64,000 nucleotides of DNA from an uncultured Spirochaetales bacterium (GTDB lineage: Bacteria; Myxococcota_A; UBA9160; SMWR01). The DNA lies in contig CAZZFT010000003.1 in NCBI GenBank assembly GCA_964653555.1, forward strand, positions 13,642 through 77,641, in the 5' to 3' direction. This document shows, piece after piece, positions 11,367 through 59,350 of the stretch. Position 1 is the stretch's first letter. The number at the start of each line of letters is the position of its first letter. The notes beneath the pieces were generated by a model. It was not told where the DNA came from, did not search any database, and saw nothing but the letters and a program-made list of their open reading frames with translations. The translations under genes were made by a program, and so were the position numbers.

Positions 11367-11382
11367 CTGACAATTCTATCAA
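11367..11382 (-). promoter_or_regulatory. Conserved 16-bp operator copy (TTGATAGAATTGTCAG on - strand)
   Basis: Matches the recurrent motif. Lies upstream of the 11-gene minus-strand operon and contains a TAGAAT -10-like hexamer. Confidence 0.65.
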
Positions 11383-12454: not shown

Positions 12455-12470
12455 CTGATAGGATACTCAG
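12455..12470 (+). promoter_or_regulatory. Conserved 16-bp operator copy (CTGATAGGATACTCAG)
   Basis: In the divergent Rieske/LLM intergenic region. Identical to the reverse complement of 38488-38503. Confidence 0.8.
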
Positions 12471-16560: not shown

Positions 16561-16576
16561 TTGATACTATGCTCAG
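16561..16576 (+). promoter_or_regulatory. Conserved 16-bp operator copy (TTGATACTATGCTCAG)
   Basis: In a divergent intergenic region; overlaps a TATGCT -10-like hexamer. Confidence 0.75.
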
Positions 16577-16614: not shown

Positions 16615-17148
16615 ATGGCTGACAGGGAGACGCGCGATCCGGCAGTCCAGGAGCTGTTGGACAAGCAGGCGATCCACGAGGTGCTGATGCGCTACTGCCG
16701 CGGCGTCGATCGGCGCGACGAGGATCTCCTGTGCAGCGTGTTCCACCCCGACGCGCTGGACGAGCACGGTGTCTTCGACGGCAATGCCCTCGAGTTCGCA
16801 CACATGGCGGTGGACATGCTGAAGCAGTTCACCGCGACCTCGCACATGATCCTGAACGAGTACGTCCAGCTCGAGGGAGACTCGGCGCACGTCGAGTCCT
16901 ACGTGCTGGCGAGCCACCGCTCCGAGCGCGACGGGCGCAAGATCGACATGACCATGGGAGCCCGCTACGTGGACCGCTTCGAGCGGCGCGGAGGTGAGTG
17001 GCGGATCGCCCATCGCGCCGTGGTGCACGACTGGAACCGCGAGCAGACGGTCGAGGCGGAGTGGCCCGAGGCGATCCGCTTCATCCAGGGCCGCCGGGAC
17101 CGAAGAGACCGCTTCTACCGCCCCGACCGGGCGCCCGTTTCTTCTTGA
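16615..17148 (+). CDS. NTF2/SnoaL-like protein
   Basis: YCRGVDRRD...FHPDA and RYVDRFERRGGEWRI motifs. AGGAGG RBS before the ATG at 16615. Confidence 0.88.
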   Translation: MADRETRDPAVQELLDKQAIHEVLMRYCRGVDRRDEDLLCSVFHPDALDEHGVFDGNALEFAHMAVDMLKQFTATSHMILNEYVQLEGDSAHVESYVLASHRSERDGRKIDMTMGARYVDRFERRGGEWRIAHRAVVHDWNREQTVEAEWPEAIRFIQGRRDRRDRFYRPDRAPVSS

Positions 17149-17212
17149 GTCATATGTCAGCTGCGACTAGGCTGGCGCGGCGGGCGCGGCGCCGCCCGGG
17201 AGGCCGATCCAG

Positions 17213-21728: not shown

Positions 21729-21744
21729 CTGATAGAATACTCAC
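21729..21744 (+). promoter_or_regulatory. Conserved 16-bp operator copy (CTGATAGAATACTCAC)
   Basis: In the divergent crotonase/amidohydrolase region; contains TAGAAT. Confidence 0.78.
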
Positions 21745-25515: not shown

Positions 25516-26186
25516 GTGGCCGAGCGGGAGCGCCGCAGCACGCGGCGCTCGGAGCGGGAACGCGAGATCCTCGAGGCTGCGCGCGCGGTGTTCGCAGAGC
25601 GGGGCTACGCCCAGGGCTCGGTCGCCGAGATCGCCGAGCGGGTCGGCGTCGTCGAGGGGACGATCTACACCTATTTCGCCACGAAGCGCGAGCTCCTGCT
25701 CCGGGTGGTGGCCGATTTCTACGAGAACCTGATTCGCGAGGTGGAGTCGGGACTCCGCTCGATCCGCGGCGCGGAGAACCGGCTGCGCTTCCTGATCGCG
25801 CGCCACCTCCAGGTGTTCGTGCAGGACCTGGGCATCTGCCGGGTGTTGCTCTCCGAGATCCGCCCCGACCCCAACCTCTACGGGGACGCCGTGCGCGAGC
25901 TCAACCGGCGCTACACCGCCCTCGCCCTCGAGGTGATCGAGCAGGGCATCCGCTCCGGCGAGCTGCGCCGCGACGTCGCGCCGACGGTGCTGCGCGACCT
26001 GATCTACGGGGGCATCGAGCACGCCCTGTGGCGCTTCGTCCACGGAGGCAAGCGGATCGAGATCGAGACGCTCGGGGAGCAGCTCGGCGACGCGCTGCTG
26101 CGCGGCGCCCTCCACGCGGAGGACGACACGGCGGAGCGGCTCGAGCGCGCCCTGTCGGCGCTCGAGCGCCGCGCCGGGGCGCCCTC

Positions 26187-26190
<4 letters not shown>
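25516..26190 (+). CDS. TetR family transcriptional regulator
   Basis: ILEAARAVFAERGY...IAERVGVVEGTIYTYFATK helix-turn-helix. Confidence 0.92.
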
Positions 26191-27665
<1,475 letters not shown>

Positions 27666-27667
27666 CA

Positions 27668-38474: not shown

Positions 38475-38487
38475 CGCGTCGCGGTTC

Positions 38488-38503
38488 CTGAGTATCCTAT
38501 CAG
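38488..38503 (-). promoter_or_regulatory. Conserved 16-bp operator copy (CTGATAGGATACTCAG on - strand)
   Basis: Exact reverse complement of 12455-12470; divergent region. Confidence 0.8.
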
Positions 38504-38539
38504 AATCACGCGGCCTCGCGCTGCGCTCGTGGAGGCCTC

Positions 38540-43138: not shown

Positions 43139-43148
43139 CCGGTGCGCG

Positions 43149-44123: not shown

Positions 44124-44175
44124 GCGTATCCTCCACTTGGTGCCTTCTTCGGGCGGCGACGCCCGGAGCGACTTG

Positions 44176-44191
44176 CTGATAAGATGCTCAG
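44176..44191 (+). promoter_or_regulatory. Conserved 16-bp operator copy (CTGATAAGATGCTCAG)
   Basis: In the divergent Rieske/SDR region; followed closely by TAGAAT. Confidence 0.78.
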
Positions 44192-44288
44192 ATAGAATAG
44201 ACCCAGGCGCGCTGGAATTGCAATTCGCTTCTAGCCCGTTTCGCGGTTCGAGCCCGCTGGAGGGCGCGCCCGGAGTAGGATGGGGCGG

Positions 44289-45125: not shown

Positions 45126-45178
45126 CTGGCGCGGCGCCCGGGCGCCGGCCGCGAGAGGGTTGGCAGGGCCGGCGCATG

Positions 45179-45194
45179 CTGATAGAAGGGTCAG
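45179..45194 (+). promoter_or_regulatory. Operator-like copy (CTGATAGAAGGGTCAG)
   Basis: Lies 20 bp upstream of the amidohydrolase start; matches both ends of the motif. Confidence 0.6.
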
Positions 45195-45214
45195 GAGCCG
45201 CCGGGAGGAATCCG

Positions 45215-46336
45215 ATGCGCAACGGACACCCGATCGTCGACGCCGACGGGCACGTGGTGGAGCCCCTCGACCTCTGGGACCGCTACATCGACGGGGAGTT
45301 CCACGACCGTCGTCCGATCACGGAGCCCCAGTTCATCACGGTGGAGGGCTGCAAGATGTCGCGTCTCGGGCTGTCCGAGCCCGATTCGGACTACGACATC
45401 GAGGAGTTCAACAAGGGCGCGGGCTACGACTGGCAGCAGAACTTCGGAGCGCAGGCCCTGAAGGGCTTCACCGCCGAGACCTACCTCGAGATGATGGACG
45501 CGGAGGGTCTCGACCGGATGGTGCTCTACCCGAGCAAGGGCCTGTACGCCGCCTCGGTCGAGCACATGGACGGCCGACTCTCGGCGGCGATCTGCCGCGC
45601 CTACAACCGATGGCTGCGCGACTTCTGCGACGCGGCGCCCGACCGCCTGATCGGCGTGGCGGTGACCGCCCTCCACGATCCGCTGCTGGCCGCCGAGGAG
45701 GCCCGTTACGGGGTGGAGGAGCTCGGGCTGCGCGGGTGCACGGTGCGACCCAATCCCTATGCAGGCCGCAACCTGGAGGACCCGGCCTACGACGTCTTCT
45801 ACGCGGAGATCGCTCGACTGGACGTCCCGCTCGCCATCCACGAGGGCGCCGGCGCCTGCATGCCCCAGTACGGGGAGCGCCACCGGTCGCGCCTCGCCCG
45901 CCACGCGATGTGCCACACCATGGAGCAGATGGGCGCCGCCTTCAGCATGACCGCAGGCGGCGTGATGGAGCGGCACCCCACCCTGCGCGTCGCGCTGCTC
46001 GAGGCCGGCGGGGGCTGGCTCCCCTACTGGCTCGACCGGCTCGACGAGCACGCCCACTGGCTCCGCCACGCGAGCAACGAGACCGGTCACCTGACGATGC
46101 GGCCGAGCGACTACTTCCGCCGTCAGGGCTGGATCCACGTCGAGCCCGACGACCCCTGCTTCCGCTCGGTGATCGACTTCCTGGGTGCGGACCGCGTCGT
46201 CTGGGCGACCGACTACCCCCATCCCGACGGCCGCTTCCCGGGCGTGGTGGACGGGATCTTCGAGGCCAAGGGGCTCTCGCCGAGAGAGATCGAGCTCTAC
46301 GCGGGAGGCAACGCGCAGGTGCTCTACGGACTCTAG
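45215..46336 (+). CDS. Amidohydrolase family 2 protein
   Basis: DADGHVVEP, RAYNRW, LEAGGGW and WATDYPHPD motifs. Confidence 0.9.
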   Translation: MRNGHPIVDADGHVVEPLDLWDRYIDGEFHDRRPITEPQFITVEGCKMSRLGLSEPDSDYDIEEFNKGAGYDWQQNFGAQALKGFTAETYLEMMDAEGLDRMVLYPSKGLYAASVEHMDGRLSAAICRAYNRWLRDFCDAAPDRLIGVAVTALHDPLLAAEEARYGVEELGLRGCTVRPNPYAGRNLEDPAYDVFYAEIARLDVPLAIHEGAGACMPQYGERHRSRLARHAMCHTMEQMGAAFSMTAGGVMERHPTLRVALLEAGGGWLPYWLDRLDEHAHWLRHASNETGHLTMRPSDYFRRQGWIHVEPDDPCFRSVIDFLGADRVVWATDYPHPDGRFPGVVDGIFEAKGLSPREIELYAGGNAQVLYGL

Positions 46337-46391
46337 TGCGTCGACGCCTCGGGCCCCGGGCACGGCGGGGACGGGAGCGGGAGGTGACCGG

Positions 46392-47189
46392 ATGTCGCGT
46401 TCGATCGATCGGCGGGGAGAGCCCCTCGAGAGCCCCGACTCCGCTGCCTGGCACAACGAGGCGGGGCGTCCGATGGCGCCCGGCCTGCCCGGGCTCGACG
46501 CACGCGCCGAGCTGGCCCTGCTGGCCCGGATCCTGTTCCGCGAGGGCTACGACGAGAATCTCGCCGGCCACATCAGCGCGAAGCAGCCCGACGGGACCTT
46601 CCTGGTCACGCCCTACGGCCTCACCTGGGACGAGCTTCGCGCTTCGGACCTGATGCGCGTGGACCTCGAGAACGGCAAGGTGCTCGAGGGGAAGTGGACG
46701 GTGACGGTCGCGATCGAGCTGCACGTCGAGCTCCACCGCGCCCGCAGCGACATCGGGGTCGCGGTCCACAACCACCCGCGCTTCGCGACGGTGTGGGCTG
46801 CGCGTCACCAGGTGCCGCCGATCTACGACCAGACCTCCACGATGCTGGGCGGGCCGCTCGCACTGCTCGACGAGTACGGCGGGGGCGTGCGCGAGACCTC
46901 CCAGTCCCAGGCCGCCGTTCGCGCCCTCGGCGACGCGCAAGCGGTGCTGCTGGCGAACCACGGCGTGCTCGTCGTCGCGCGCGACGTCCGCCAGGCCTAC
47001 CTGCGCTCGATCGCCGTGGAGCGGCGCTGCCGCATCGCCTGGTACGTGGAGGCGCTGGGCGGTGGCACCCCGATGCGCGACGAGGTGGCGACGGTCGGCG
47101 GCCGGATGATGGACGAGAACGGCTGGCCCGGCAGCTTCGAGGCACTGGCGCGCCGGGAGCTGCGCCGCGATCCCTCCGTCCTGGAGTAG
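46392..47189 (+). CDS. Class II aldolase/adducin family protein
   Basis: AGHIS, LHVELH, VHNH and LANHG motifs. Confidence 0.88.
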   Translation: MSRSIDRRGEPLESPDSAAWHNEAGRPMAPGLPGLDARAELALLARILFREGYDENLAGHISAKQPDGTFLVTPYGLTWDELRASDLMRVDLENGKVLEGKWTVTVAIELHVELHRARSDIGVAVHNHPRFATVWAARHQVPPIYDQTSTMLGGPLALLDEYGGGVRETSQSQAAVRALGDAQAVLLANHGVLVVARDVRQAYLRSIAVERRCRIAWYVEALGGGTPMRDEVATVGGRMMDENGWPGSFEALARRELRRDPSVLE

Positions 47190-47204
47190 CGACCGCGCGC
47201 CGAT

Positions 47205-47666
47205 TCAGCCGCGCGCGGGCAGGGAGCGCTCGGCGACGGTCTCCTCGGTGCGCCAGACGCTGGTGAGCTCGAGTCGCCGGATCCGCCAGCCCGCCGACCC
47301 GCGCACCAGGGAGTGGCGATACACGGCGCCCTCAGTGATGCGCAGCTCGCCCTCGGGCTGCGGCGCGACGAGCCGCGCCCACAGGCTCACCCGCGTGCGC
47401 GCCGAGTCGCCCGCCAGGTCGACGCGCAGGTTCGAGAGCAGATGCTGGCTGGCCGCGATCGGCGTCATCGATTCTTCCAGGAAGGCGAGCACGGCGTCGC
47501 GTCCCTCGAAGCTGCCGAACCCGTCGTAGTGGCAGGCGACGTCTTCGGTGAAGACGCGCTCGGCGAGGCCCTTCCAGTCGTGGTCGTCGACGCAGGTCGC
47601 GTACTCGGTCAGGAGATCGGAGATCGCCTGGCGGTCCCGCAGGTCGCGCACGTCCGTTTCGCCCAT
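47205..47666 (-). CDS. NTF2/SnoaL-like protein
   Basis: DRQAISDLLTEYATCVD, SQHLLSN and GWRI motifs. Confidence 0.87.
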   Translation of the reverse strand: MGETDVRDLRDRQAISDLLTEYATCVDDHDWKGLAERVFTEDVACHYDGFGSFEGRDAVLAFLEESMTPIAASQHLLSNLRVDLAGDSARTRVSLWARLVAPQPEGELRITEGAVYRHSLVRGSAGWRIRRLELTSVWRTEETVAERSLPARG

Positions 47667-47678
47667 TCCGATGGCTCC

Positions 47679-48551
47679 TCAGCCGACCCGCGCGATGACG
47701 CGGTCGGCGAAGTCCTCGAGCGCCCGGCGCTTGTCGTCGATCGACGAGCTGGGCTTCCCGAGCTGGAAGGCCAGCGGCCACAGCACCGCGTCCACGCCCA
47801 GGTCGGCGCAGCGGCGCGCGTCCTCCACCGTGGGAAGACTGGCGAGCGGCACGAGCACGGAGAACGGCTCCCGGCTGCGCCCGGCCTCGCGACGCAGCGC
47901 GTCCAGGCGCCGCGTCCAGTCCTCGACTTCGCTCACGTCGCAGCCGGAGGCGATCCAGCCGTCCCCGAGCCGGGCCGCCCGCCGCAGCGCCGGCTCGCTC
48001 TGGCCGCCGATCCAGATCGGGATCGGCTCCGCGGGCGTGGGGTGCATCCAGATCGGATCGAAGTCGAAGAAGCGGCCGTGGTGCTCCACCGGACCGCCCG
48101 AGGCCCACAGCTTCCGCATCACCTCGATCATCTCGTCGGTGCGGCGACCGCGCGTGTGGAAGTCCCGGCCGAGCTGGTCGAACTCCTCCTTCATCCAGCC
48201 CACGCCCGCACCCAGGGCGACGCGGCCGCCGGCGATCCGGGACACGGTGGCCAGCGACTTCGCCACCTCGAGCGGATGGCGCAGCGGCAGGATCATCACC
48301 GCGTGGCTGAGCCACAGCGTCCGGGTGGCGCCACCGATCGCGGCGAGCAGCGCTCCCGGCTCGAGCCACGGCGTGTCCTTGGCGAAGCCCGGCTTGCCGT
48401 CCTCCGAGTAGGGATAGGCCGACGCCATCTTCTCCGGATAGAAGAGATGGTCCGAGGCGACGACGCCGTGGAAGCCGACCGCCTCGGCGATCCGCGCGAC
48501 CTCGACGATCTGCTCGGGCTCGGTGTGGGACAGTGCTTGCCAGAATCTCAT
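47679..48551 (-). CDS. LLM-class oxidoreductase, probable F420-dependent type
   Basis: SDH, LPLRHPLEVAK, GVGWMKEEF and ALRRAARLGDGW motifs. Confidence 0.88.
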   Translation of the reverse strand: MRFWQALSHTEPEQIVEVARIAEAVGFHGVVASDHLFYPEKMASAYPYSEDGKPGFAKDTPWLEPGALLAAIGGATRTLWLSHAVMILPLRHPLEVAKSLATVSRIAGGRVALGAGVGWMKEEFDQLGRDFHTRGRRTDEMIEVMRKLWASGGPVEHHGRFFDFDPIWMHPTPAEPIPIWIGGQSEPALRRAARLGDGWIASGCDVSEVEDWTRRLDALRREAGRSREPFSVLVPLASLPTVEDARRCADLGVDAVLWPLAFQLGKPSSSIDDKRRALEDFADRVIARVG

Positions 48552-48576
48552 CCGGATCCCTCCGACTCGCCGCGGC

Positions 48577-49977
48577 TCAGCGGGAGCCCTCTCGCCGGCG
48601 CTCTGCGAGCTGTTCGCAGATCTGCTGGTGAACCGCCTCGGTCAGGCGGAAGCGGGTGAACATCGCGATCCCGATCAGGAAGGCGACGCAGGGGACGATT
48701 CCGTAGAGGGCGCGCAGGGCGAGCTTCGTCGCCTCGGTCTGCTCCGCGTTCGCCTGGTAGCCGACCCACTGCATCACTCCACCGACCAGGATCACCATGA
48801 TCCCCGAGGCGCTCTTCACCACGAAGTTCAGAGCGGCGAAGTAGGCGCCCTCCTTCCGCTCGCCCGTCTCGTACTCGTCGTGGTCGACGACGTCGGCCTG
48901 GATCGCGGGGGCGATTGCCTGGGCACAGCCTCCGGCCACGCCGTTCACGATCGACAGCACGATCACGTACCAGGCACCCCCCTCCCAGACGAAGAACAGC
49001 GCGCCGTAGCCCGCGGCGCTGACCGACATCGACGCCAGCCACAGCGTCCGCTTGGGGTAGCGGTGGGCGAGCGCCACCCAGATCGGAATCGTCGCGATCT
49101 GGGGCAGGAAGTAGGCCAGGAAGGAGGCCTCCATGATGTCGGGCATCTTCACGACGTAGAGCACGATGAAGGGCTTGAGCACACCGAGCGCGCCGATCCC
49201 GAGGATCTCGACGAAGTAGACCCCGAGCAGGAGTCGGCCGTGGGGATTGCGCCAGACGTCGCGATAGGCGCGCATCGGGCTCGATCCGCCGCGATGACGG
49301 AAGTCGGGCCGCTCGCGGAGTCGCGACACGGACCATCCGGTCACCAGCACGATCAGCGCACCCACGCCGAGCGACAGCCACAGGCCGGCCTGGCGCGGAT
49401 CGGCGGCGCTGCGCAGCACGTACAGGCCGCCCGTGAAGGCGAACAACGACCCGATCGCGCGCAGCCCGCCGCGCGCGCCGAAGATGCGGGCGCGGTCCTC
49501 GCGCCGGGAGGAGAGCTCCGCCCCGAGCGCGTAGTGGGGCACCTCGAAGATGGTGAGGGCCGCCATGTAGCCGAAGACGGCGATCGTCACCCACGCGGTG
49601 AGCCAGCCGCCCGCGAGCGCGTCGGGAGGGCTCCACACCATCACCGAGGTGACCACGAAGGCCAGCGCCGAGGCGAGGATCCACGGCCGGCGACGCCCCG
49701 ACCGGAGCGTGGTGCGATCGCTCAGGTATCCGGCCAGGGGATCGGTGACGGCGTCCCACACCCGGGAGAGGCCGAAGATCAGGCTGATCGTCGCCGGTGC
49801 CATCAGCAGCACATCCGTGCCGAAGCGCACGAAATAGGTGAAGACGAGCTGCGTCATGAAGAACACCGGGATCAGCGGCGCCGCGTAGGCGGCGATCGTC
49901 GACGCCGGGAGCCGGACCTCGGCGGCCGCGGGCGCTGCGGCGACGCGCGCCGTCGCGGTCGATCCGATCGAGCTCAT
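48577..49977 (-). CDS. MFS transporter (GPH/MelB-like)
   Basis: Multiple TM helices; DAVTDPLAGYLSD, GRRRPWI and ERKEG motifs. Confidence 0.9.
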   Translation of the reverse strand: MSSIGSTATARVAAAPAAAEVRLPASTIAAYAAPLIPVFFMTQLVFTYFVRFGTDVLLMAPATISLIFGLSRVWDAVTDPLAGYLSDRTTLRSGRRRPWILASALAFVVTSVMVWSPPDALAGGWLTAWVTIAVFGYMAALTIFEVPHYALGAELSSRREDRARIFGARGGLRAIGSLFAFTGGLYVLRSAADPRQAGLWLSLGVGALIVLVTGWSVSRLRERPDFRHRGGSSPMRAYRDVWRNPHGRLLLGVYFVEILGIGALGVLKPFIVLYVVKMPDIMEASFLAYFLPQIATIPIWVALAHRYPKRTLWLASMSVSAAGYGALFFVWEGGAWYVIVLSIVNGVAGGCAQAIAPAIQADVVDHDEYETGERKEGAYFAALNFVVKSASGIMVILVGGVMQWVGYQANAEQTEATKLALRALYGIVPCVAFLIGIAMFTRFRLTEAVHQQICEQLAERRREGSR

Positions 49978-50066
49978 CAGTCCACCTCGTTCGGGTTGGG
50001 AACGGGTCGCGCCCCCGTCGCGAACTCCCTGCGACGGCGAGCATCGGATCGCCAGGCCCGGCTATA

Positions 50067-50082
50067 CTGAGCATCCTATCAG
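50067..50082 (-). promoter_or_regulatory. Conserved 16-bp operator copy (CTGATAGGATGCTCAG on - strand)
   Basis: In the divergent MFS/thiolase region; overlaps TATACT (50063-50068). Confidence 0.8.
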
Positions 50083-50125
50083 AACGACTGGACCCCAGGT
50101 CCAGGATTATCGGAGGAAGATCGAG

Positions 50126-51355
50126 ATGGCCGAGGCGTGGATCATCGACGGCGTGCGCTCGCCGCGCGGGCGGGGCAAGCCGGGCAAGGGTGGGCTCGCC
50201 CATCTCCATCCCCAGCGCGTCCTCGCGCAGGTGCTGAACGCGCTGCGCGACCGGGTCGGATTCGACCCCGCGGAGGTCGACGACGTCGTCGTCGGCTGCG
50301 GAGCCGGAAACGGCGACCACGCACACGACATCGCCCGCATGTCGGTGCTCGACGCGGGATGGTCGACCGCGGCTCCGGGCGTCACCCTGCACCGCTTCTG
50401 CGGCTCGGGACAGCAGGCGGTGAACTTCGCCGCCATGGGCATCCTCGCCGGCCATCAGGACCTGGTGATCGGAGGCGGTGTCGAATCCATGTCCCGCTAC
50501 GCGCCGCTGCACGCGCACGGCTTCCACGCCAACAACGAGCACCTGTTCCGGCGCCATCCGATGGTTCCCCAGGGCATCTCCGCCGACCTGATCGCGACAC
50601 TGGAGGGGTTCACGCGCGAGGACTGCGACCGCTACGCGGTGCGCAGCCAGGAGCGCGCGGCCGCCGCCATCGCCGACGGCCGCTTCGACCGCAGCCTGGT
50701 CCCGATCCACAACGAGGACGGCTCCCTCGCCCTCGACCGCGACGAGCATCCGCGGGCGGGCACCACGCCCGAGAGCCTCGCCCAGCTACCGGCCTCCTTC
50801 GAGAAGATGGGCACGACGGTGATGGAGGGCTACGAAAAGAGCTTCGACGAGCTGTGCCGCGACGTGTACCCGCAGATCGACAAGGTCGACCACGTGCACC
50901 ATGCGGGCAACTCGTCCGGGGTGGTGGACGGCGCCAGCGCGATCCTGCTCGCCTCGCCGGAGTACGCGCGCGCCCACGGTCTCGCGCCGCGGGCGCGGAT
51001 CGTGATGACGGCCACGGTGGGCACCGAGCCCGTGATCATGCTCACCGCCCCGGAGCCGGCGGCACGCGCCTGCCTCGAGCGCGCCGGCATGGGCTACGGC
51101 GACATCGATCTATTCGAGGTGAACGAGGCCTTCGCATCGGTGGTGCTGAAGTTCCTCAAGGACTCGGGCGTCGACCCGGAGCGCGTCAACCCCAACGGCG
51201 GCGCGATCGCCCTCGGCCACCCGATCGGCGGCACCGGACCGATGCTCATCCAGACCGTGCTCGACGAGCTGGAGCGGCGCGATCTCGCCACCGGCCTGGT
51301 CACGATGTGCACCGGCGGCGGGATGGGCACGGCGACGATCATCGAGAGGATCTGA
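50126..51355 (+). CDS. Acetyl-CoA C-acyltransferase (thiolase)
   Basis: RFCGSG, NEAF, GHPIG and MCTGGG motifs. Confidence 0.93.
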   Translation: MAEAWIIDGVRSPRGRGKPGKGGLAHLHPQRVLAQVLNALRDRVGFDPAEVDDVVVGCGAGNGDHAHDIARMSVLDAGWSTAAPGVTLHRFCGSGQQAVNFAAMGILAGHQDLVIGGGVESMSRYAPLHAHGFHANNEHLFRRHPMVPQGISADLIATLEGFTREDCDRYAVRSQERAAAAIADGRFDRSLVPIHNEDGSLALDRDEHPRAGTTPESLAQLPASFEKMGTTVMEGYEKSFDELCRDVYPQIDKVDHVHHAGNSSGVVDGASAILLASPEYARAHGLAPRARIVMTATVGTEPVIMLTAPEPAARACLERAGMGYGDIDLFEVNEAFASVVLKFLKDSGVDPERVNPNGGAIALGHPIGGTGPMLIQTVLDELERRDLATGLVTMCTGGGMGTATIIERI

Positions 51356-51367
51356 GCGGGTCGCGGA

Positions 51368-52156
51368 TCAGTGGAAGTGGTGACCGCAGTTCACGTTCAG
51401 GGCCTGGCCGGTGATCCCGCGCGCGAGGTCCGAGGCCATGAACACGACTGCGTCGGCCACCTCCTCGGGGCGCGCGATCCGGCGCAGCGGTAGCTGATCG
51501 GCGACCGCCCGCTCGAGCGCCTCGGCCGTCGTGCCCTGCTCCGACGCCATCTGCTCGAAGTAGGCGGCGACCCCGGGACCCCAGATGTAGCTGGGGACGA
51601 TCGCGTTGACGCGGATGCCGTAGCGGCCCACCTCGAGGGCGAGCGTGCGCGTGGCGGCGTGGAGCGCCCCCTTCGAGGCGACGTAGGGGCCATGGCGCTC
51701 GAAGGGAATCCGGATCTCGGTGGTGTTGATCATCACGATCGCGCCCCGGGAGCGCCGGCGCATGTGCGGGATCACCGCCCGGGACAGGCGCAGGGAGCCG
51801 AGCAGGTTGACCCGCATCGGCTCGAGCCAGGCGTCGGCGTCGAGGTCGGCGTCCTCGATCGGGGTGTCGAGGTCACCGGTGGTGAAGGCGCTGTTCACGA
51901 GGACGTCGATGCGACCGAAGCGCTCCTGGGCCGCGGCGACGAGGCGGTCGCAGTCTTCGGCAGCGGAGACGTCCGTCACGACGCAGTGCGCGCGCCCGCC
52001 GACCGACTCGACCTCCTTGGCGACCGACTCGAGGCGCTCGGCGCTGCGCGCCGCGAGCACGACGTTCGCGCCCTCGCGACCGAAGGCGAGCGCCATGCCC
52101 CGTCCGAGGCCGGGACCGATTCCCGTGATGATGCAGCAGCGGTCGTGGAGCAGCAC
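51368..52156 (-). CDS. SDR family oxidoreductase
   Basis: TGIGPGLG, VNSA and YVASK motifs. Confidence 0.9.
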   Translation of the reverse strand: MLLHDRCCIITGIGPGLGRGMALAFGREGANVVLAARSAERLESVAKEVESVGGRAHCVVTDVSAAEDCDRLVAAAQERFGRIDVLVNSAFTTGDLDTPIEDADLDADAWLEPMRVNLLGSLRLSRAVIPHMRRRSRGAIVMINTTEIRIPFERHGPYVASKGALHAATRTLALEVGRYGIRVNAIVPSYIWGPGVAAYFEQMASEQGTTAEALERAVADQLPLRRIARPEEVADAVVFMASDLARGITGQALNVNCGHHFH

Positions 52157-52168
52157 GGCGTCTCCGCG

Positions 52169-52963
52169 TCAGTGGAAGTAGCCCCCGCAGTTCACGTCGA
52201 GCGACTGCCCGGTGACGATGCGGGAGAGGTCCGAGGCGAAGAAGACGACCGCGTCGGCCACCTCGCTCGCATCGACCAGACGGTGAAGGGCGTGCTCCTC
52301 GCGCAGACGATCCCGCAGCACCTCCTCGGCGGATCCTTCCCGCGCGGCGCGTGCCTCGAGAGCGGCGCGCAGGTGCGGCCCCTCGATCCAGCCCGGAACG
52401 ACCGTGTTCACGCGAATGCCGTGGGGCCCGAGCTCGCGGGCGAGCAGCCGCGCGGCCGCCAGCAGCGCGCCGCGCGCGAGGAGCACCGGTCCGGCGCCTT
52501 CGAGAGCGAGGCGCTCTTCGACGGAACCGATCATCACGATCGAGCCGCTGCCCAGCCGGCGCATCGCCCGCGCCACCTCCTGGGCGAGGGCGAGCGCCTC
52601 GAACACCTCCCCCTCGAGCGCGCGCCGCCAGGAGGCGAGGTCCGCCTCCGCGGTCTCCTCGGCCGCGGGCGTGCCCCGGGGCGGCCCGAGCACGAGCGCG
52701 TCGATGCGGCCCCAGGTCTGGACGGCCGTCTCCACCAGCCGGCGGCCCTCGCCGGCCTGCGACAGGTCCGCGGTGAGCGCGGTCGCGCTTCCGCCCTGCG
52801 CGCGGATCCCGGCGACCGCCTCCGCCAGGGCGTCGCTGCGCGGCCCGACCAGCACCAGGCGCGCTCCCTCGCGCGCCAGGGCCGAGGCGACGGATGCCTC
52901 CAGCTCCGGGCCGAGCCCGACCACCAGGGCGACGCGTTCGGTCAGCAGCCCGGCCTCCGGCAT
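52169..52963 (-). CDS. SDR-fold protein lacking canonical catalytic residues
   Basis: Paralog of the downstream SDR. GLGPELE replaces the Gly loop and VLLAR replaces YxxxK. Confidence 0.8.
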   Translation of the reverse strand: MPEAGLLTERVALVVGLGPELEASVASALAREGARLVLVGPRSDALAEAVAGIRAQGGSATALTADLSQAGEGRRLVETAVQTWGRIDALVLGPPRGTPAAEETAEADLASWRRALEGEVFEALALAQEVARAMRRLGSGSIVMIGSVEERLALEGAGPVLLARGALLAAARLLARELGPHGIRVNTVVPGWIEGPHLRAALEARAAREGSAEEVLRDRLREEHALHRLVDASEVADAVVFFASDLSRIVTGQSLDVNCGGYFH

Positions 52964-52970
52964 CGTCCCC

Positions 52971-53939
52971 TCAGTCCCCGCCCGCGCCGGCCGACGACGG
53001 CCCGTAGAACTGCCGCGCCCAGCGCCGGTACTCGCCGATCGGCCCGTCGCCGTCGCACAAGACCGGCGTCGGCCGATAGGTCTTGTTCTCCCAGATCGCG
53101 AAGTCCTGGGAGGTGATGTGCTGCTGCTCGTCCATCTGGGTGCGCAGCTCGGCCAGGGCCTCCTGCTCGCTGCGGGAGCCCTTCCGACCGATCACGGAGT
53201 TCGTGAAGCGTACGAGGCCCTCGTCGATCGGCGTGATCGTTCCGATGCTGCGCGTCTCGAAGGCTCCGTTGTAGTGGATCGTGTTGAAGCCGAGCCCCCA
53301 GTTCTCGGCCACCAGGTACAGCTCGCGACTGGGACCGCCCACCTCGTTCTCGTAGCCCGCATCGATCACCCAGCGGAACATGGGCCCCTCGAAGGAGCAC
53401 TCGCGGTGGCTCGGCACGTCCATCGCGTGCACCTGCTCGAAGTGCGGCCAGTCGATCGCGTTCTCCATCATCTCCTGGGGATGGGTGCGCAGCTCCCAGC
53501 TGTACCGGGTCCAGGTGGAGGTCCACTCGGCCGCGCCGTACTCCGCGATCCGCGGGATCCGGAAGCTCGGCGGCTCGCCACCGGCGTGGTGCCACACGTA
53601 GACCTGTCCGTTCCGCTCTTCGACGGGCCAGGAGCGGATGCGTGCTCGGGGCGGAATCCGACGCGCGTAGGGAATCTCGAGGCACTCGCCCTTCGCGTCG
53701 TAGCACCAGCCGTGGAAGGGACAGCGGAGGCGGTTGCCCTCCACGCGGCCGCCGTGCCCGAGATGTGCGCCGAGATGCGCGCAGTAGGCCTCCACCACGG
53801 CGGCCTCTCCGTCCTCGCCCCGAAACAGCACGAGCTCCTGACCGAACACGTGGATCGGCAGCAGCGCGCCGGGCGCCAGATCCTCGGAGAAGGCGATCTG
53901 GAACCAGCCGTTGGGCATGGCCAGTGCGTGAGCCGCCAT
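52971..53939 (-). CDS. Rieske [2Fe-2S] oxygenase, KshA/Nvd-like (paralog 3)
   Basis: PNGWF, CAHLG...CPFHGW, ENAIDWPHFEQVH and QDFAIW motifs. GAGGAGG RBS before the ATG at 53939. Confidence 0.9.
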   Translation of the reverse strand: MAAHALAMPNGWFQIAFSEDLAPGALLPIHVFGQELVLFRGEDGEAAVVEAYCAHLGAHLGHGGRVEGNRLRCPFHGWCYDAKGECLEIPYARRIPPRARIRSWPVEERNGQVYVWHHAGGEPPSFRIPRIAEYGAAEWTSTWTRYSWELRTHPQEMMENAIDWPHFEQVHAMDVPSHRECSFEGPMFRWVIDAGYENEVGGPSRELYLVAENWGLGFNTIHYNGAFETRSIGTITPIDEGLVRFTNSVIGRKGSRSEQEALAELRTQMDEQQHITSQDFAIWENKTYRPTPVLCDGDGPIGEYRRWARQFYGPSSAGAGGD

Positions 53940-53983
53940 CGGTTCTGTGCCCCTCCTCGCGAAGCCGGACTCCATCGTGACTT

Positions 53984-53999
53984 CTGATAATACGCTCAG
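53984..53999 (+). promoter_or_regulatory. Conserved 16-bp operator copy (CTGATAATACGCTCAG)
   Basis: In the divergent Rieske/TetR region. Confidence 0.75.
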
Positions 54000-54283
54000 C
54001 TCCTGGCGACCTCAACGAAAGAAACGTCGCGGAGCTTGAAACGGGTGTTCTAGTGGTGCGCCGCACGGAGTGAGGGCGAACTCGCCGCGAGCCGCCCCGG
54101 TTCTCGCTTGCCACGGGGGCGCTCGCCCGCCAAGCTGTGCGCCCAACGCCCGCGGGCCGCGATGCGGGATCGAACGCCGGCGCCGTCGGCGACGAAGCGG
54201 GCGGACCCGCGCCGGGATCCGAAGACCGAACCGCCGTCGCGACGGGCGCGCACGAACGGGCAGCAATGCGCAGGGAGACGAAC

Positions 54284-54931
54284 ATGGGGAGGAAGACGAA
54301 GGCGACCGCACCCGAGGCGAAGACCGAGCGGCGCATGGACGCGGACCGCCGTCGCGCACAGCTGCTCGAGTGCGCGATTCGCGTCGCGAGCCGGCAGGGT
54401 CTCGGCAGCAGCCCCCACGCGGCCACCGCCCGGGAAGCGAACGTCTCCGTCCCGACCGTGTTCGCCTACTTCCGCAGTCGGCAGGATCTGTTGCGCGCCA
54501 TCGTCGAGGACGTGGAGCGCCTGTACAGCGAGCTGGGGGCCGAGCACCTATCCCGCGACAAGCCGGCGCCGGAGGCGATGTTCGAGTTCCTGCGCGCCTG
54601 CGCGCAGACGGCGGCGACCGATCCCGATCGGGTCCGGGTCTGGCTCGACTGGAGCTCCACGGTGGGATCCGAGGTCTGGCCGCTGTACGTGGACTTCCAC
54701 GATCGTTCGATCCGCCGGATGGCCGCGCTCGTCCGCCGGGGCCAGCGCGAGGGCACCATCCCCCGCGACGTGGACGCCCTGGACGCCGCGCGGCTGCTGT
54801 TCGCCTCCGGCCACACCGTGGCCCAGATGATGTTCTCGAAGACTCCCGAGAAGACCGTGCGCCGGTTCCAGAACCACGTGATCTCGTCGGCGCTGCACCT
54901 CGAACCGTCGCATCCGGGTCTGCAGGACTAG
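54284..54931 (+). CDS. TetR family regulator resembling Vibrio LuxR/HapR/SmcR
   Basis: HTH segment HAATAREANVSVPTVFAYF; C-domain VWLDWSSTVGSEVWPLY; GGGAG RBS before the ATG at 54284. Confidence 0.85.
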   Translation: MGRKTKATAPEAKTERRMDADRRRAQLLECAIRVASRQGLGSSPHAATAREANVSVPTVFAYFRSRQDLLRAIVEDVERLYSELGAEHLSRDKPAPEAMFEFLRACAQTAATDPDRVRVWLDWSSTVGSEVWPLYVDFHDRSIRRMAALVRRGQREGTIPRDVDALDAARLLFASGHTVAQMMFSKTPEKTVRRFQNHVISSALHLEPSHPGLQD

Positions 54932-54966
54932 CGGGAGCGCGATCTCGCGGCGCGAGGGGCGGGGCC

Positions 54967-56238
54967 TCAGAGCAACATCGTCGCGGGAGACTCGACCAGG
55001 GAGCGGAAGGCCGCGAGGAGCCGGGCGCCGATGGCGCCGTCGATCGCGCGGTGGTCGGCGGCCAGCGTGACGATCGCCGTCCGCCGCACCACGGGCTGGC
55101 CCTCGCGCGCGACCACTCGCGGCTCCACCGCCCCCACGCCCAGGATGCACGCCTGGGGCACGTTGAGGATCGGGAACAGCCGCCGCACGCCGTACATGCC
55201 CAGGTTCGAGAGCGTGGCGGTGCCCCCGGCGTACTCCTCGGGGAGCAGTCGCCCCTGCTGGGCGCGCGCGACCAGGTCGTGCAGCTCGCGGGCGATCGCG
55301 CCGAGCCCCTTGCCGTCGGCGCCGCGCACGACCGGCGTCACGAGCCCGCGCTCCGAAGCGACCGCCACCGCGAGATCGACGCGCTCGTGCATGCGGAGGC
55401 CGCCGTCGCGCCAGGAGACGTTCGCCTCGGGGACCCGGCGCAGCGCGAGTGCCGCGATCCGCACCAGGAGGTCGTTCACGGTCAGCGCCGGTCCGCCGTC
55501 GGCGTCGCGCCCCTCGTTCAGCTCGCGGCGCAGGGCGAGCAGCCGCTCGGCGTCGCACTCCACGTCCAGATAGAAGTGCGGCGCCGTCCGCTTCGCCTCC
55601 GCGAGCCGCTCGGCCGCCGTGCGCCGGGCGACGCTGAGACGCTCGTCGCGCCCGGGCGGAGCCGCCTCCAGGACCGGCAGCACCGCTGCCGACGCGGTCG
55701 CCGGTGCCGGGCCGCGCGCGGACGGGGGGGCGGCGGACGGAGATCGTCGCTGCCCGCCGAGCGCCCGCTCCACGTCGAGGCGCACGATGCGTCCGCCGTG
55801 ACCCGACCCGGCCAGCTCGCCGAGATCGAGTCGCGCCTGCGCCGCCATCCGCCGCGCCAGGGGAGTGGCGCGCAGCGCCTCGGAGGGCGGAGGCGGGGGC
55901 GAAGCCGGCACGGCGGGCGGGCTGGCGTTCGCCGCGGAGGGCTCCTCGGCAGCCACCGGGCCGGGTGCGGGCGCCGCTCCGACGCGCTCGCTCGTGTCCT
56001 CGGCCGCCCGCATCCGCGCGAGCAGCGTCCCCACCGCGACGCCTTCGGTGCCCTCGGCGATCAGGATCTCGGCGAGCACGCCCGCCGCCTCCGCCTCCAG
56101 CTCGACGGTGGACTTGTCGGTCTCGACCTCCGCCAGCAGGTCACCGGGTCGGACGGCGTCGCCCACCCGCTTGTGCCAGGCCACCAGCGTGGCCTCGGCC
56201 GTGGAGGCCGAGAGCTCCGGCAGACGGATCTCGATCAC
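54967..56238 (-). CDS. Dihydrolipoamide acyltransferase (E2)
   Basis: Lipoyl motif ETDKS, ATPLARR binding domain, DHRAIDG active site. Confidence 0.92.
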   Translation of the reverse strand: MIEIRLPELSASTAEATLVAWHKRVGDAVRPGDLLAEVETDKSTVELEAEAAGVLAEILIAEGTEGVAVGTLLARMRAAEDTSERVGAAPAPGPVAAEEPSAANASPPAVPASPPPPPSEALRATPLARRMAAQARLDLGELAGSGHGGRIVRLDVERALGGQRRSPSAAPPSARGPAPATASAAVLPVLEAAPPGRDERLSVARRTAAERLAEAKRTAPHFYLDVECDAERLLALRRELNEGRDADGGPALTVNDLLVRIAALALRRVPEANVSWRDGGLRMHERVDLAVAVASERGLVTPVVRGADGKGLGAIARELHDLVARAQQGRLLPEEYAGGTATLSNLGMYGVRRLFPILNVPQACILGVGAVEPRVVAREGQPVVRRTAIVTLAADHRAIDGAIGARLLAAFRSLVESPATMLL

Positions 56239-58616
56239 GCGCGACCTCCCGCGGCGATCGCGTCGAGGCGGGCCCGTGCCGCCGCCTCGATCCAGGCCTC
56301 GGCGTCGAGGCCGTGATGGCGGTACAGGGCGGCCAGATCACCGGACTGGCCGAAGCTCTCCACGCCGAGTGACACGACACGGTGTCGACCGACCGCTCCC
56401 AGCCAGGAGAGCGCCGCCGGGTGCCCGTCGAGTCCCGTCACGAGCGCGGCCTCGGGTGCGAGCCGTGCGAGCAAGGCCTCGATCGGCGCGCGCCGCGCCG
56501 CCCGGCCGGCGGCGCGCTCCGCCTGGGCGGCGCGCCAGTCGCGGTGGAGCCGGTCCGCCGAGGTCACCGCCAGCAGGCCGATCCCCGGCAGGTCGGCGGC
56601 GAGAGCCGCGTGGGCGGCGAAGGCCTCCGGGGCGATCGCGCCCATGTAGACGAGCGCGAGCGGCGCCTCGCCGGTCGGCTCGATCGCCCAGTAGGCGCCG
56701 GCAACCACCGCGTCGGCGAGCTCGGGCGTCATCTCGCGCTCGGGCTGCTCCAGCGACCGCGTCGAGAGCCGCAGGCACACCGATCCCCCGTCGGGCGCCT
56801 GCATGTGCTCGAGCGCGAAACGCATCACCACCGCTAGCTCGTCGACGTAGGCGGGCTCGAAGGCCAGCAGGCCCGGCTGGCCCATGCACACGAGCGGGGT
56901 CGACACGGACTGGTGGGCGCCGCCTTCGGGCGCCAGCGTGATGCCCGAGGGCGTCGCCACCAGCAGGAAGCGTGCGTCCTGGTAGCAGGCGTAGTTGAGC
57001 GCATCGAGTCCGCGCGCGATGAAGGGGTCGTAGAGGGTTCCGATCGGCAGCAGCCGCGCCCCGAACAGCGGGCCGGCGAGACCGAGGGCGGCGAGCAGGA
57101 TGAACAGGTTGTTCTCCGCGATCCCCAGCTCGAAGTGCTGCCCGCCCGGCGACACCTCCCAGCTCTGGGCCGAGACCACGTTCTCGCGCCGGAACAGGTC
57201 CTCCTGGGTGAGCCGGTTGTAGACACCGCGCCGGTTCACCCAGGCCCCGAGGTTCGTCGAGACCGTCACGTCCGGCGACGCGGTGACGATCCGGTCGGCG
57301 ATCGGGCCGCCGCTTCGCGCGAGCTCGGCGAGCAGCCGCCCGAAACCCTCCTGGGTGGAGGCGCGCGCGGCGCGGCGCAGCGCGAGCGTGCGGGGGACCG
57401 GGATCGGGGCGGTCGCGTGACGGCGCTGGGTCTGGCGCGCGAAGGGCACCGACGCGAGGAACTCGCGCAGCGACGCCTCCGGCACGTCGAGGCCCGCAAA
57501 GGGCTCCCACTCGGCTCCTTCCGGCACCGCCTGCTCGGCGCGGAAGGACTCCATCTGCTCCGGGGTCATCAGCCCGGCGTGGTTGTCCTTGTGGCCCGCG
57601 AAGGGAAGCCCGTAACCCTTGATCGTGTAGGTCAGGAAGCAGGTCGGCGTGTCGCCGCTCGCGCGGTGGAAGGCCTCGAGCACGGTCTCGAGATCGTGCC
57701 CCCCGAGATTGGTCATCAGCGCGTGGAGGTCGGCGTCGTCGTGGCTCGCCAGCAGCTCGCGAAGGCCCGCGTCCCCGCCGAGATCGCGAAGTAGCGCGTC
57801 GCGCCAGCCCGCGCCGCCCTTGTAGACCAGTGCCGAGTAGAGGGAGTTCGGACAGCCGTCGATCCAGCGCCGCAGCGCGTCGCCGCCCGGACCGCGGAAG
57901 GCGGCTTCGAGGCGCTTGCCGTACTTGAGCACCTCCACGTCCCAGCCCATCGACCCGAACAGGGTCTCGATGCGCTGCCCGAGCCGGTCCTGCACGACGC
58001 GGTCGAGGCTCTGGCGGTTGTAGTCGATGATCCACCAGGTGTTGCGGACCTGGTACCGCCAGCCCTCGAGCAGTGCCTCGAACACGTTGCCCTCGTCGAG
58101 CTCCGCGTCGCCGACCAGCGCGATCATGCGACCGGGCGGCGCGTCGTCCGCCACCAGCTTCCGACTCCGCAGGTGGTCCTGGACCAGCGACGCGAAGAGC
58201 GTCATCGCGACGCCGAGACCGACCGAGCCGGTCGAGAAGTCGACGTCGTCGCCGTCCTTGGTGCGCGACGGGTACGACTGGGCACCGCCGAAGGCGCGGA
58301 AGCGCTCCAGCGCGTCGCGCGAGGCGCGTCCCAGCAGGTACTGGATCGCGTGGAACACGGGGCTCGCGTGGGGCTTCACCGCGACCCGGTCCTCGGGCCG
58401 CAGCACGTCGAAGTAGAGCGCCGCCATCAGCGTGACCACCGAGGCGCAGGAGGCCTGGTGTCCGCCGACCTTCAGGCCGTCCGAGTGGGGGCGCAGGTGA
58501 TTCGCGTGATGGATCGTCCACGCCGAGAGCCAGAGCAGCTTGCGCTCCAGCGCGCGCAGACAGCGCAGGCGCTCGAGCTCGCCCTGCCCCGCTTCGGCCC
58601 TCGCTGCGTCCGCCAT
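56235..58616 (-). CDS. Homodimeric 2-oxoacid dehydrogenase E1 (AceE/transketolase-like)
   Basis: KVGGHQAS, STGSVGLG, GDAELDEG TPP motif, ELGIAE and EGGAHQS. ATG at 58616. Confidence 0.88.
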   Translation of the reverse strand: MADAARAEAGQGELERLRCLRALERKLLWLSAWTIHHANHLRPHSDGLKVGGHQASCASVVTLMAALYFDVLRPEDRVAVKPHASPVFHAIQYLLGRASRDALERFRAFGGAQSYPSRTKDGDDVDFSTGSVGLGVAMTLFASLVQDHLRSRKLVADDAPPGRMIALVGDAELDEGNVFEALLEGWRYQVRNTWWIIDYNRQSLDRVVQDRLGQRIETLFGSMGWDVEVLKYGKRLEAAFRGPGGDALRRWIDGCPNSLYSALVYKGGAGWRDALLRDLGGDAGLRELLASHDDADLHALMTNLGGHDLETVLEAFHRASGDTPTCFLTYTIKGYGLPFAGHKDNHAGLMTPEQMESFRAEQAVPEGAEWEPFAGLDVPEASLREFLASVPFARQTQRRHATAPIPVPRTLALRRAARASTQEGFGRLLAELARSGGPIADRIVTASPDVTVSTNLGAWVNRRGVYNRLTQEDLFRRENVVSAQSWEVSPGGQHFELGIAENNLFILLAALGLAGPLFGARLLPIGTLYDPFIARGLDALNYACYQDARFLLVATPSGITLAPEGGAHQSVSTPLVCMGQPGLLAFEPAYVDELAVVMRFALEHMQAPDGGSVCLRLSTRSLEQPEREMTPELADAVVAGAYWAIEPTGEAPLALVYMGAIAPEAFAAHAALAADLPGIGLLAVTSADRLHRDWRAAQAERAAGRAARRAPIEALLARLAPEAALVTGLDGHPAALSWLGAVGRHRVVSLGVESFGQSGDLAALYRHHGLDAEAWIEAAARARLDAIAAGGRA

Positions 58617-58775: not shown

Positions 58776-59261
58776 GTGGCGGCAGATCTGGACGAGATCG
58801 ACCGGCGCATCCTGGGCCAGCTCCAGGAGAACGCGCGGATCTCCAACGTGGAGCTGGCGGCAGCGGTGGGCCTGTCCCCCTCGCCCTGCTTGCGACGCGT
58901 GCGCGATCTCGAGGCGGAGGGCGTGATCCGGGGCCACGTCACCCTGCTCGACCCGATCCGGCTGGGCCTCGGCGTGAGCGTCTTCGTCCAGGTGCGGCTC
59001 GAGAGGCAGGTCGAGGAGGCGCTCGAGACCTTCGAGGCCGCGGTGTCGAGCCGACCCGAGGTCGTCGAGTGCTACCTGATGACGGGCGACGCCGACTACC
59101 TGCTGCGCGTCGTGGTGCCCGACCTGCCGGCCTACGAGCGCCTGATGATCGACCACCTCACGCGCATTCCCGGGGTGTCGAACATCCGCTCCAGCTTCTC
59201 GCTGAAGCAGGTCAAGTACCGGACCCAGCTTCCTCTCGACATGACCTCCGACGATTCCTGA
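58776..59261 (+). CDS. Lrp/AsnC family transcriptional regulator
   Basis: LDEIDRRIL...[16 protein letters not shown] and [13 protein letters not shown] motifs. Confidence 0.93.
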
Positions 59262-59299: not shown

Positions 59300-59350
59300 T
59301 TGACACCGGACCGGCGTGGCGGGTAGCGTCGCTCCTGACATGTTCATCAG
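59300..59350 (+). promoter_or_regulatory. Candidate sigma70 promoter followed by a weak operator-like site
   Basis: TTGACA (59300-59305), 18-bp spacer, TAGCGT (59324-59329), then CTGACATGTTCATCAG (59335-59350). Confidence 0.45.

Follow-up and report, generated by a model that had tools for sequence, protein, structure and literature searches.

A HapR-like regulator in a non-Vibrio genome

What does a transcriptional regulator with the signatures of the Vibrio quorum-sensing master regulators do in a high-GC genome outside Vibrio? The question is raised by a gene at 54284..54931 (+) of a 64,000-nt stretch from an uncultured Spirochaetales bacterium (positions 13,642 to 77,641 of contig CAZZFT010000003.1), which is the whole DNA analysed here and is called the window. 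The gene encodes a HapR-like TetR-family regulator of 215 aa (P0001), identified by its translation, TetR_N, NF040929, PDB, AlphaFold2 and Foldseek. The window, with a G+C content of 71.5%, is part of contig C3 (109,585 bp, 2% of the genome) in an assembly (G000) of 5.56 Mb in 327 contigs that is 99.86% complete. It turned out that the characterised TetR proteins nearest to P0001 by sequence and by fold are LuxR/HapR/SmcR, and that the genomic setting of P0001 is catabolic, not quorum sensing. A 16-bp box related to the LuxR-type operator recurs between the genes around it, and P0001 is probably a repressor of this catabolic island that is released by a ligand.

The start codon of P0001 at 54284 is an ATG preceded by an AGGGAG Shine-Dalgarno-like stretch, and it agrees with the N-termini of homologues with 81-84% identity. 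A longer open reading frame (ORF) with a GTG start at 54137 exists, and it has neither a Shine-Dalgarno-like stretch nor the support of homologue N-termini. Pfam TetR_N (PF00440) matched residues 27-73 with 31.9 bits (cut-off 24) and is the only TetR model that passes, since the several C-terminal TetR models that scored are all under their cut-offs. The AlphaFold2 model, built from a 36-sequence alignment, has a mean pLDDT (predicted local distance difference test) of 92.8 and a pTM (predicted template modelling score) of 0.85, with the pocket-forming helices modelled at high confidence. Exactly one HapR-like gene was detected in the genome.

Kinship with the Vibrio LuxR/HapR regulators

The best NCBIfam model for P0001 is NF040929, which represents the LuxR/HapR/OpaR quorum-sensing regulators (E 2.9e-23; 82.6 bits, cut-off 350), and the match spans only positions 6-132 of the 200 in the profile; as a control, the truncated Vibrio-type protein P0172 scored 308 bits. 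When we ran phmmer against all PDB sequences, the 18 best distinct matches were all Vibrio or Photobacterium proteins of the HapR, LuxR, SmcR or OpaR type (E 3.1e-25 to 1.2e-18), and the next TetR protein followed at E 5.7e-11, a gap of at least 7 orders of magnitude. The Foldseek top matches of the model are HapR, SmcR and LuxR, including the LuxR-DNA complexes 7amn and 7amt, and all 23 listed rows ahead of the first other TetR (2gfn, rank 44) belong to these proteins. Their query-normalised TM (template modelling) scores are 0.71-0.81 for most and 0.64 for 8w39, and those of the other listed TetRs are 0.65-0.71 (0.65 for 2gfn). Because the NCBIfam, PDB and AlphaFold2/Foldseek results agree, the resemblance to LuxR/HapR is correct and far beyond chance.

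The initial annotation, made from the letters alone, had proposed this kinship from two peptides and their Vibrio counterparts. Both peptides are found in the translation (residues 39-69 and 118-135), and the Vibrio strings match the alignment with chain 9jrw_B, with identity at 17 of 31 and at 9 of 18 positions.

It does not follow that P0001 groups with the LuxR/HapR clade, as had also been supposed. We built a quick IQ-TREE tree of 136 rows (unrooted; support from the Shimodaira-Hasegawa-like approximate likelihood ratio test, SH-aLRT, only), in which 12 named Vibrio/Photodesmus rows and the representative P0152 form one clade (SH-aLRT 99) with two environmental sequences as its sister (SH-aLRT 100). 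P0001 lies outside, in a separate clade of 6 rows (SH-aLRT 100), and its NF040929 score is below the family cut-off. A tree with outgroups was left unused, as the four outgroups did not fall on one side of a branch and the outgroup ORFs from L003 and L011 are over-long high-GC frames. P0001 is thus not an orthologue or member of the Vibrio LuxR/HapR family proper.

The similarity had further been said to extend into the C-terminal domain. This is true at the helix junction VWLDWS...EVWPLY (VWLDWSSTVGSEVWPLY), to which the P0001-Vibrio similarity past the DNA-binding domain is essentially limited, and it does not hold elsewhere: the whole-length identity to the Vibrio protein P0186 is 24% (49 of 205). 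In P0186, which served as pocket reference, every one of the 18 SmcR pocket residues is present under the SmcR numbering. Among the 18 putative ligand-pocket residues given for SmcR (PMC2859563), 4 (W, S, V, A) are identical in P0001, and the polar ones N133, N136, Q137, H167 and C170 correspond to H, S, I, F and G. Since the C-terminal similarity, the overall identity and the pocket identity are all low, P0001 tells little directly about the Vibrio ligand, a point on which the initial annotation had been more hopeful.

The DNA-reading residues V50, T52, F54, Y56, F57 and R60, together with H39, are conserved in P0001, and the arm residues R11 and R17 are retained. The residues on which activation depends in Vibrio are replaced (N55 by A61, L139 by R145, N142 by A148). 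N55 is described as completely conserved in LuxR/HapR-type proteins, with substitutions that abolish activation and spare repression, and S76A, L139R and N142D are reported to mark the domain that interacts with RNA polymerase alpha (PMC8191795). In our alignment all 12 Vibrio rows have N at this position, and in the other 123 rows N does not rank among the four most frequent residues. The loss of these determinants argues for P0001 being a predicted repressor only rather than an activator.

An environmental HapR-like family

P0001 had been presented as a singular oddity, and it turned out to be one of many. A word-indexed search returned 35 homologues, many of which are labelled by JGI as [quoted passage not shown], an automatic HapR-type label. 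Searched exhaustively with phmmer, 1.84 billion cluster representatives gave 2,107 matches at E<=1e-3; the number falls to 206 (50%-identity clusters) at E<=1e-10 and to 29 at E<=1e-30. Homologues share 31-84% identity with P0001 across 83-100% of its length, the closest being P0002-P0004 (81-84%) and P0005-P0008 (65-72%). In the family alignment A1 the VWLDWS...WP motif is common and H45, F63 and W132 are invariant; the NF040929 cut-off is reached by none of 41 relatives.

With each of 185,579 species represented by a single genome, relatives are encoded in 571 stretches. Of these 571, the 80 best belong to Gammaproteobacteria (23), Binatia (18), "Deltaproteobacteria" (14), Alphaproteobacteria (7), Myxococcota (7), Methylomirabilota (2) and others; almost all are metagenome-assembled genomes, with one isolate, Litoribrevibacter euphylliae. 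Within the order of the window itself, 23 of 151 sampled genomes have a match at E<=1e-25, and the best non-self match is 46% identical. Among the matches listed in a metagenome scan are a 4-kb contig with a 50% identical protein (L111) and N-terminal-only matches. P0001 is therefore a member of a large, uncharacterised environmental family, a sister radiation of the Vibrionaceae LuxR/HapR proteins.

Besides, a luciferase-like monooxygenase (LLM) gene lies directly 3' of the HapR-like gene on the same strand in 27 of 77 family loci (L020, L021, L034, L051, L056, L082 and 21 more). The LuxA model NF052254 is among the top NCBIfam matches for several of these enzymes and is the best match for the one at L034 (116 bits, cut-off 600). 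A LuxR-type TetR and a LuxA-like enzyme are thus a recurrent pair outside Vibrio.

A family-wide operator

We examined the 300 nt upstream of 78 family genes, all from genomes other than that of the window. The spaced motif TGA-N8-TCA occurs there 82 times, at 3.4 sites per kb, and the remainder of the loci has 0.19 per kb. The longer ATTGA-N8-TCAAT has 40 sites in the 24.2 kb ahead of HapR-like genes, spread over 33 of the 78 loci, compared with a single site in 86.9 kb of non-ORF DNA elsewhere and 5 sites in 1,048 kb of ORF DNA. The family consensus from 52 sites is TTATTGATAGAATTGTCAATAG, with positions 4-7 and 16-19 fixed by the selection of sites. The Vibrio regulators have as their operator a 20-22-bp box with a TGA-N8-TCA core, and the family consensus closely resembles the one published for SmcR, 5'-TTATTGATWWRWTWNTNAATAA-3' (PMC2859563); the operator architecture is therefore common to the whole radiation.

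Many family promoters carry paired boxes (L013, L016, L034, L037, L051, L066-L068, L071 and others), near positions -60 and -38 relative to the start codon. Their starts are 21-25 bp apart, mostly 22, a spacing that points to a pair of dimers on the same face of the DNA helix. The locus of a 52% identical P0001 orthologue (L012) holds at least 5 boxes in 20 kb: three lie 5' of a short-chain dehydrogenase/reductase (SDR) gene, one in the region divergent from an old yellow enzyme (OYE) gene (CTGATATGGTGCTCAG) and one 5' of a hydratase gene that is 69% identical to g21 of the window. These boxes adjoin homologues of the SDR, SnoaL, OYE and hydratase genes in the window.

The box in the Spirochaetales genome

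The box in the window is CTGATAGGATACTCAG, a local variant of the LuxR-type operator of the family, TTGAYA-N6-TCAA; the extended site ttCTGATAgGATaCTCAg has a palindromic outer CTGA...TCAG and, like the family consensus, a TGATAG left half and the same spacing. The SmcR core given in the initial annotation, TGATWWRWTWNTNA, has no exact match in the window, and the box fits it at 13 of 14 positions (with G at position 6) and with the same TGA-N8-TCA spacing. The 14-mer TGATAGGATACTCA has 7 sites in the window at <=3 mismatches, where 0.68 are expected, and none of 100 shuffles reached 7.

The box is concentrated on one contig. For TGATA-N5-CTCA there are 9 sites in the 5.56 Mb genome, 7 of them in the window. 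For YTGAYA-N6-TCAR there are 15, of which 13 are on C3 (10 in the window, 3 outside it), and a site at 21729 that ends in C is an eleventh in-window box beyond this pattern. All in-window boxes are intergenic. Ten of the 11 are 20-89 nt from a same-strand start codon or 26-102 nt from that of a divergent gene, and the remaining one (17145) is 52 nt before g17. The best conserved (0-1 mismatch) are those at 12455, 38488, 21729 and 50067.

A position weight matrix made from the family promoters of other genomes ranks the C/G-flanked window boxes low (13.7 and 10.1 bits). It places 5 of its 11 best genome-wide sites on C3 outside the window (C3 positions 10155, 10220, 78282, 89021 and 97594), with flanks of T/A or mixed type, e.g. 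CTTCTGATAGAAATGTCAAGAT. The predicted regulon probably extends over the whole 110-kb contig.

The genes beside these boxes were mapped as g1-g60 with a codon-usage caller; the Pfam scan covered g10-g60, leaving out g1-g9 and the C3 flanks outside the window. From the left, box TTGATAGAATTGTCAG (11367..11382, -) lies 52 nt 5' of SDR gene g11. Box CTGATAGGATACTCAG (12455..12470, +) lies between KshA-like g12 and LLM gene g13, 29 nt from the start of g13. Box TTGATACTATGCTCAG (16561..16576, +) is found between the medium-chain dehydrogenase/reductase gene g15 and SnoaL gene g16, and the box-like site CTGACATATGACTCAA (17145..17160, -) between g16 and the OYE/FMN reductase gene g17. Box CTGATAGAATACTCAC (21729..21744, +) is between hydratase g21 and Amidohydro_2 gene g22, and a second copy of CTGATAGGATACTCAG (38488..38503, -) is between Abhydrolase_10 gene g36 and enoyl-CoA hydratase g37. 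Box CTGATAAGATGCTCAG (44176..44191, +) separates KshA-like g42 and LLM g41 (-) from SDR g43 (+), and the weaker CTGATAGAAGGGTCAG (45179..45194, +) is 20 nt 5' of Amidohydro_2 gene g44. Box CTGATAGGATGCTCAG (50067..50082, -) lies between thiolase g49 and the MFS_2 transporter g48, which is followed by LLM g47 and SnoaL g46. The variant CTGATAATACGCTCAG (53984..53999, +) lies between the P0001 gene and the divergently transcribed KshA-like gene g52, where it overlaps a -10-like TATTAT, and the box-like site CTGACATGTTCATCAG (59335..59350, +) is 51 nt 5' of g57, which has no Pfam match.

According to Pfam and NCBIfam, the flanking genes encode KshA-like Rieske oxygenases (g12, g42, g52), LLMs (g13, g41, g47), SnoaL-like proteins, SDRs, enoyl-CoA hydratases, a thiolase, an OYE/FadH-type flavoenzyme, Amidohydro_2 and Abhydrolase_10 proteins and an MFS_2/GPH-type transporter. 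This gene content bears out the catabolic rather than quorum-sensing setting that the initial annotation had read from the window.

Gene content of the island

The three KshA-like Rieske oxygenases (11418-12428, 43149-44123 and 52971-53939) are paralogous, and each adjoins a box. The last of them, g52 (52971..53939, -), has the KshA_C and Rieske Pfam domains and is the first of a run with the SDR genes g51 and g50. At E<=1e-20 there is no NCBIfam match for g12 or g52 (g42 was not in that scan).

Two further regions look like actinobacterial catabolic accessories in a non-actinobacterial setting. For g17 (17213-19273) the closest NCBIfam model is "mycofactocin system FadH/OYE oxidoreductase 2" (617 bits, cut-off 793), and g38 belongs to the Rv3169 family (275 bits, cut-off 150), with an APH-type kinase next after it (39340-41530). 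In the middle of the island lies an Atu-like acyclic-terpene module, g24-g31 (23435-32422), with genes for an acyl-CoA dehydrogenase, a hydratase, a second TetR protein (g26), a biotin carboxylase, a biotin carboxyl carrier protein, a carboxyltransferase, an SDR and AtuA. This module has no HapR-type box, and none is present between 21744 and 38488. A search of the g24/g25 intergenic region for a putative g26 operator gave no inverted-repeat pair.

The P0001 gene itself stands alone, with convergent neighbours downstream. These (54967-58616) are an E2 acyltransferase, in which a lipoyl, an E3-binding and a catalytic domain are present, and a fused E1-like thiamine enzyme. Beyond this pair Pfam identifies the Lrp/AsnC regulator g56 (58776-59261). 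The region of about 285 nt between the nearest box and the P0001 start codon (54000-54283) is very GC-rich; an inverted-repeat search of this leader returned only short GC palindromes, and the gene's own promoter was not located in it. Rfam at gathering thresholds gave no match in the window.

Which regulator binds the box

From its sequence relationships, P0001 is the most likely binder of the box, because the genome has a single HapR-like gene, C3 carries few regulators, the orthologue locus L012 also has boxes, and the operator is family-wide. There are 53 TetR_N matches in the genome, and on C3 only P0001 and g26 are found. None of the genome's matches to sigma-70 (21), LysR (7), IclR (11), GntR (5), AraC (10) and MarR_2 (18) models is on C3; other regulator families were searched in part.

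The rival candidate is g26 (25516..26190, +), a FadR/YsiA-like TetR inside the Atu-like module (100 bits on NCBIfam NF053878, cut-off 200). The box could be an operator of g26, of Lrp g56 or of an undetected factor, with P0001 controlling its immediate neighbours or something else. Both g26 and g56 are genes of this island, the box copy adjoining the P0001 gene is the weakest one, and the regulator families on C3 are only partly covered by the searches. Nevertheless we consider this explanation unlikely. No box is near the g26 operon. The HapR-like family operator has the same half-site and spacing as the window box. Furthermore, L012 has boxes and a P0001 orthologue, and no g26 homologue was detected there within +/-6 kb (E 1e-10).

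Mode of action

From the homology, the fold, the distribution of the box and its conservation across the family, we infer how P0001 may act. A P0001 dimer would bind the 16-bp box and, when bound, would keep the catabolic island silent at 11 or more promoter regions of the window, with 13 sites on the 110-kb contig. A substrate or intermediate of the pathway would fill the C-terminal pocket, and P0001 would then leave the DNA. Going by the gene content of the island, our guess for this ligand is a terpenoid, alicyclic or steroid-like substrate or intermediate, or a CoA ester. Such a mode of action, like that of KstR, is probable for P0001. At one promoter the geometry is visible: the box at 53984-53999 overlaps a -10-like hexamer, part of a promoter-like site on the minus strand (TTGAGG-17-TATTAT) directed at g52, and this fits repression of g52-g50 by promoter occlusion.

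Several observations weigh against ligand-released repression by P0001 across the island. The second TetR g26 and Lrp g56 lie in the window. In the window box the symmetric positions next to TGA/TCA are C/G, where the family has T/A, and the right half is different as well (CTCAG, compared with GTCAA in the family consensus). The box is asymmetric and mostly directed at the nearest downstream gene. As it contains a TGnTAnnAT extended -10-like string, its conservation may be partly that of a promoter rather than of an operator. In a sigma-70 consensus scan of 10500-30000 and 36000-55900, a promoter-like site overlaps only the box at 53984 and two more are adjacent to the box at 11367; other boxes may overlap -10 elements as well. 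Finally, the copy nearest the P0001 gene is the most degenerate and faces the divergent g52. The initial annotation had placed one box in the gene's own upstream region; a copy is indeed there, as a 4-mismatch variant 285 nt 5' of the start on a divergent promoter-like site. Autoregulation, which is typical of the family, is for this reason not evident for P0001.

A second rival is that P0001 is only a local regulator (e.g. of the divergent KshA-like/SDR operon) and that the distant boxes are weakly or not bound and stem from duplicated promoter modules. In the 78 other family loci the box is essentially limited to the regulator's own promoter, and the three KshA-like genes and several LLM, SnoaL and SDR genes resemble duplicated modules. 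It is precisely the distant boxes (12455, 38488, 21729 and 50067) that are best conserved, however, and that one 16-mer is kept in promoters whose contexts are not homologous speaks for selection, so we regard purely local regulation as quite improbable.

Could P0001 work as the Vibrio proteins do, as a dual activator and repressor that follows cell density or another global signal instead of a pathway metabolite? Its nearest relatives and its many target sites would suit this, and so would the asymmetry of the box, as LuxR-activated promoters with half-palindromes have been described (PMC3705450). The replaced N55, L139 and N142 speak against it, as do the targets, all of which are on one catabolic contig. 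Searches for Qrr (RF00378), LuxS (PF02664) and Autoind_synth (PF00765, the LuxI-type synthase) gave no match in the 99.86%-complete genome, with positive controls for LuxS only, so that the Qrr and LuxI results stand without one; LuxO, CqsA and LuxM were not searched genome-wide. In the window, the earlier statement that no autoinducer synthase or LuxO-like gene is present holds for g10-g60, where Pfam saw no such domain (g1-g9 were not scanned). On balance a Vibrio-like role is very unlikely.

The weakest rival, a motif that is chiefly an extended -10 plus discriminator read by a housekeeping or dedicated sigma factor, draws on the TGnTAnnAT string and the orientation towards downstream genes, and it is highly improbable, since a general promoter element would not be limited to one contig, none of the 21 sigma-70-family genes is on C3 and the outer CTGA...TCAG is palindromic with the family operator spacing. 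As the sole explanation, a generic promoter element was rejected on the grounds that the motif is confined to C3 and that C3 has no sigma-factor gene. An overlapping promoter and operator is compatible with repression of the island by P0001.

Comparison with known systems

P0001 resembles the Vibrionaceae LuxR/HapR/SmcR/OpaR/LitR regulators (NF040929) in its recognition-helix residues and in the VW(L/F)(D/E)WS...EVWPL(Y/F) motif. The SmcR operator and the window box share the TGA-N8-TCA spacing and the TGATA half-site, and many target promoters, predicted in the case of P0001, are a further likeness. Unlike those of the Vibrio regulators, the putative targets of P0001 are all catabolic genes on one contig.

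KstR is an actinobacterial TetR repressor that controls steroid/cholesterol catabolism; this one protein acts through many operators over a large catabolic island with KshA-type Rieske oxygenases and is released by a CoA-thioester of the pathway. It is the closest functional analogue of P0001, by analogy only, as there is no homology beyond the TetR fold: P0001 scores 25.6 bits on NF033703 (cut-off 280), KstR chains in PDB match at E about 3e-3 and the operator sequence is different. The next-best NCBIfam match of P0001 is BetI, the choline-responsive TetR repressor, with 42.4 bits (cut-off 201) in the N-terminal half; the C-terminal domain is unmatched and there is no bet gene context. Compared with other environmental HapR-like TetRs, which mostly have 1-2 boxes in their own promoter only, the genome of P0001 has a C/G-flanked variant spread over at least 11 promoters.

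Meaning for the family

Among the literature matches listed for HapR-like or HapR-family proteins, all are Vibrio studies apart from one signalling study of Pseudomonas aeruginosa, and a description of the environmental family was not found; a broader search likewise showed no characterisation outside Vibrio among the papers listed. Automatic annotation does already give its members a HapR-like label; what stands out is the family-wide conservation of the operator and the putative independent expansion of a regulon.

We tentatively propose a scenario, which we hold to be possible and somewhat short of probable. The Vibrionaceae regulators would be a derived twig of widespread, ligand-responsive local repressors that already used a LuxR-type box and typically shared an operon with a LuxA-like flavin monooxygenase. 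Both the connection of LuxR to luciferase-family enzymes and the pocket for a native ligand would then be inherited from a catabolic past, and this genome would represent a second, independent expansion to a multi-operon regulon, with 13 operators on a 110-kb catabolic island. In a report of January 2026 the native ligand of LuxR/HapR/SmcR is still described as unidentified (PMC12977469). A ligand found for P0001 need not apply to Vibrio, because the pocket residues differ.

In conclusion, a sister radiation outside Vibrio, with a shared operator, monooxygenase or catabolic operons and no activation residues, frames the evolution from a local ligand-gated repressor to a global quorum-sensing regulator, and the environmental family offers tractable proteins for ligand discovery. 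For this uncultivated high-GC lineage, a regulon and an operator are predicted for a large, unstudied catabolic island, possibly for terpenoid or alicyclic compounds.

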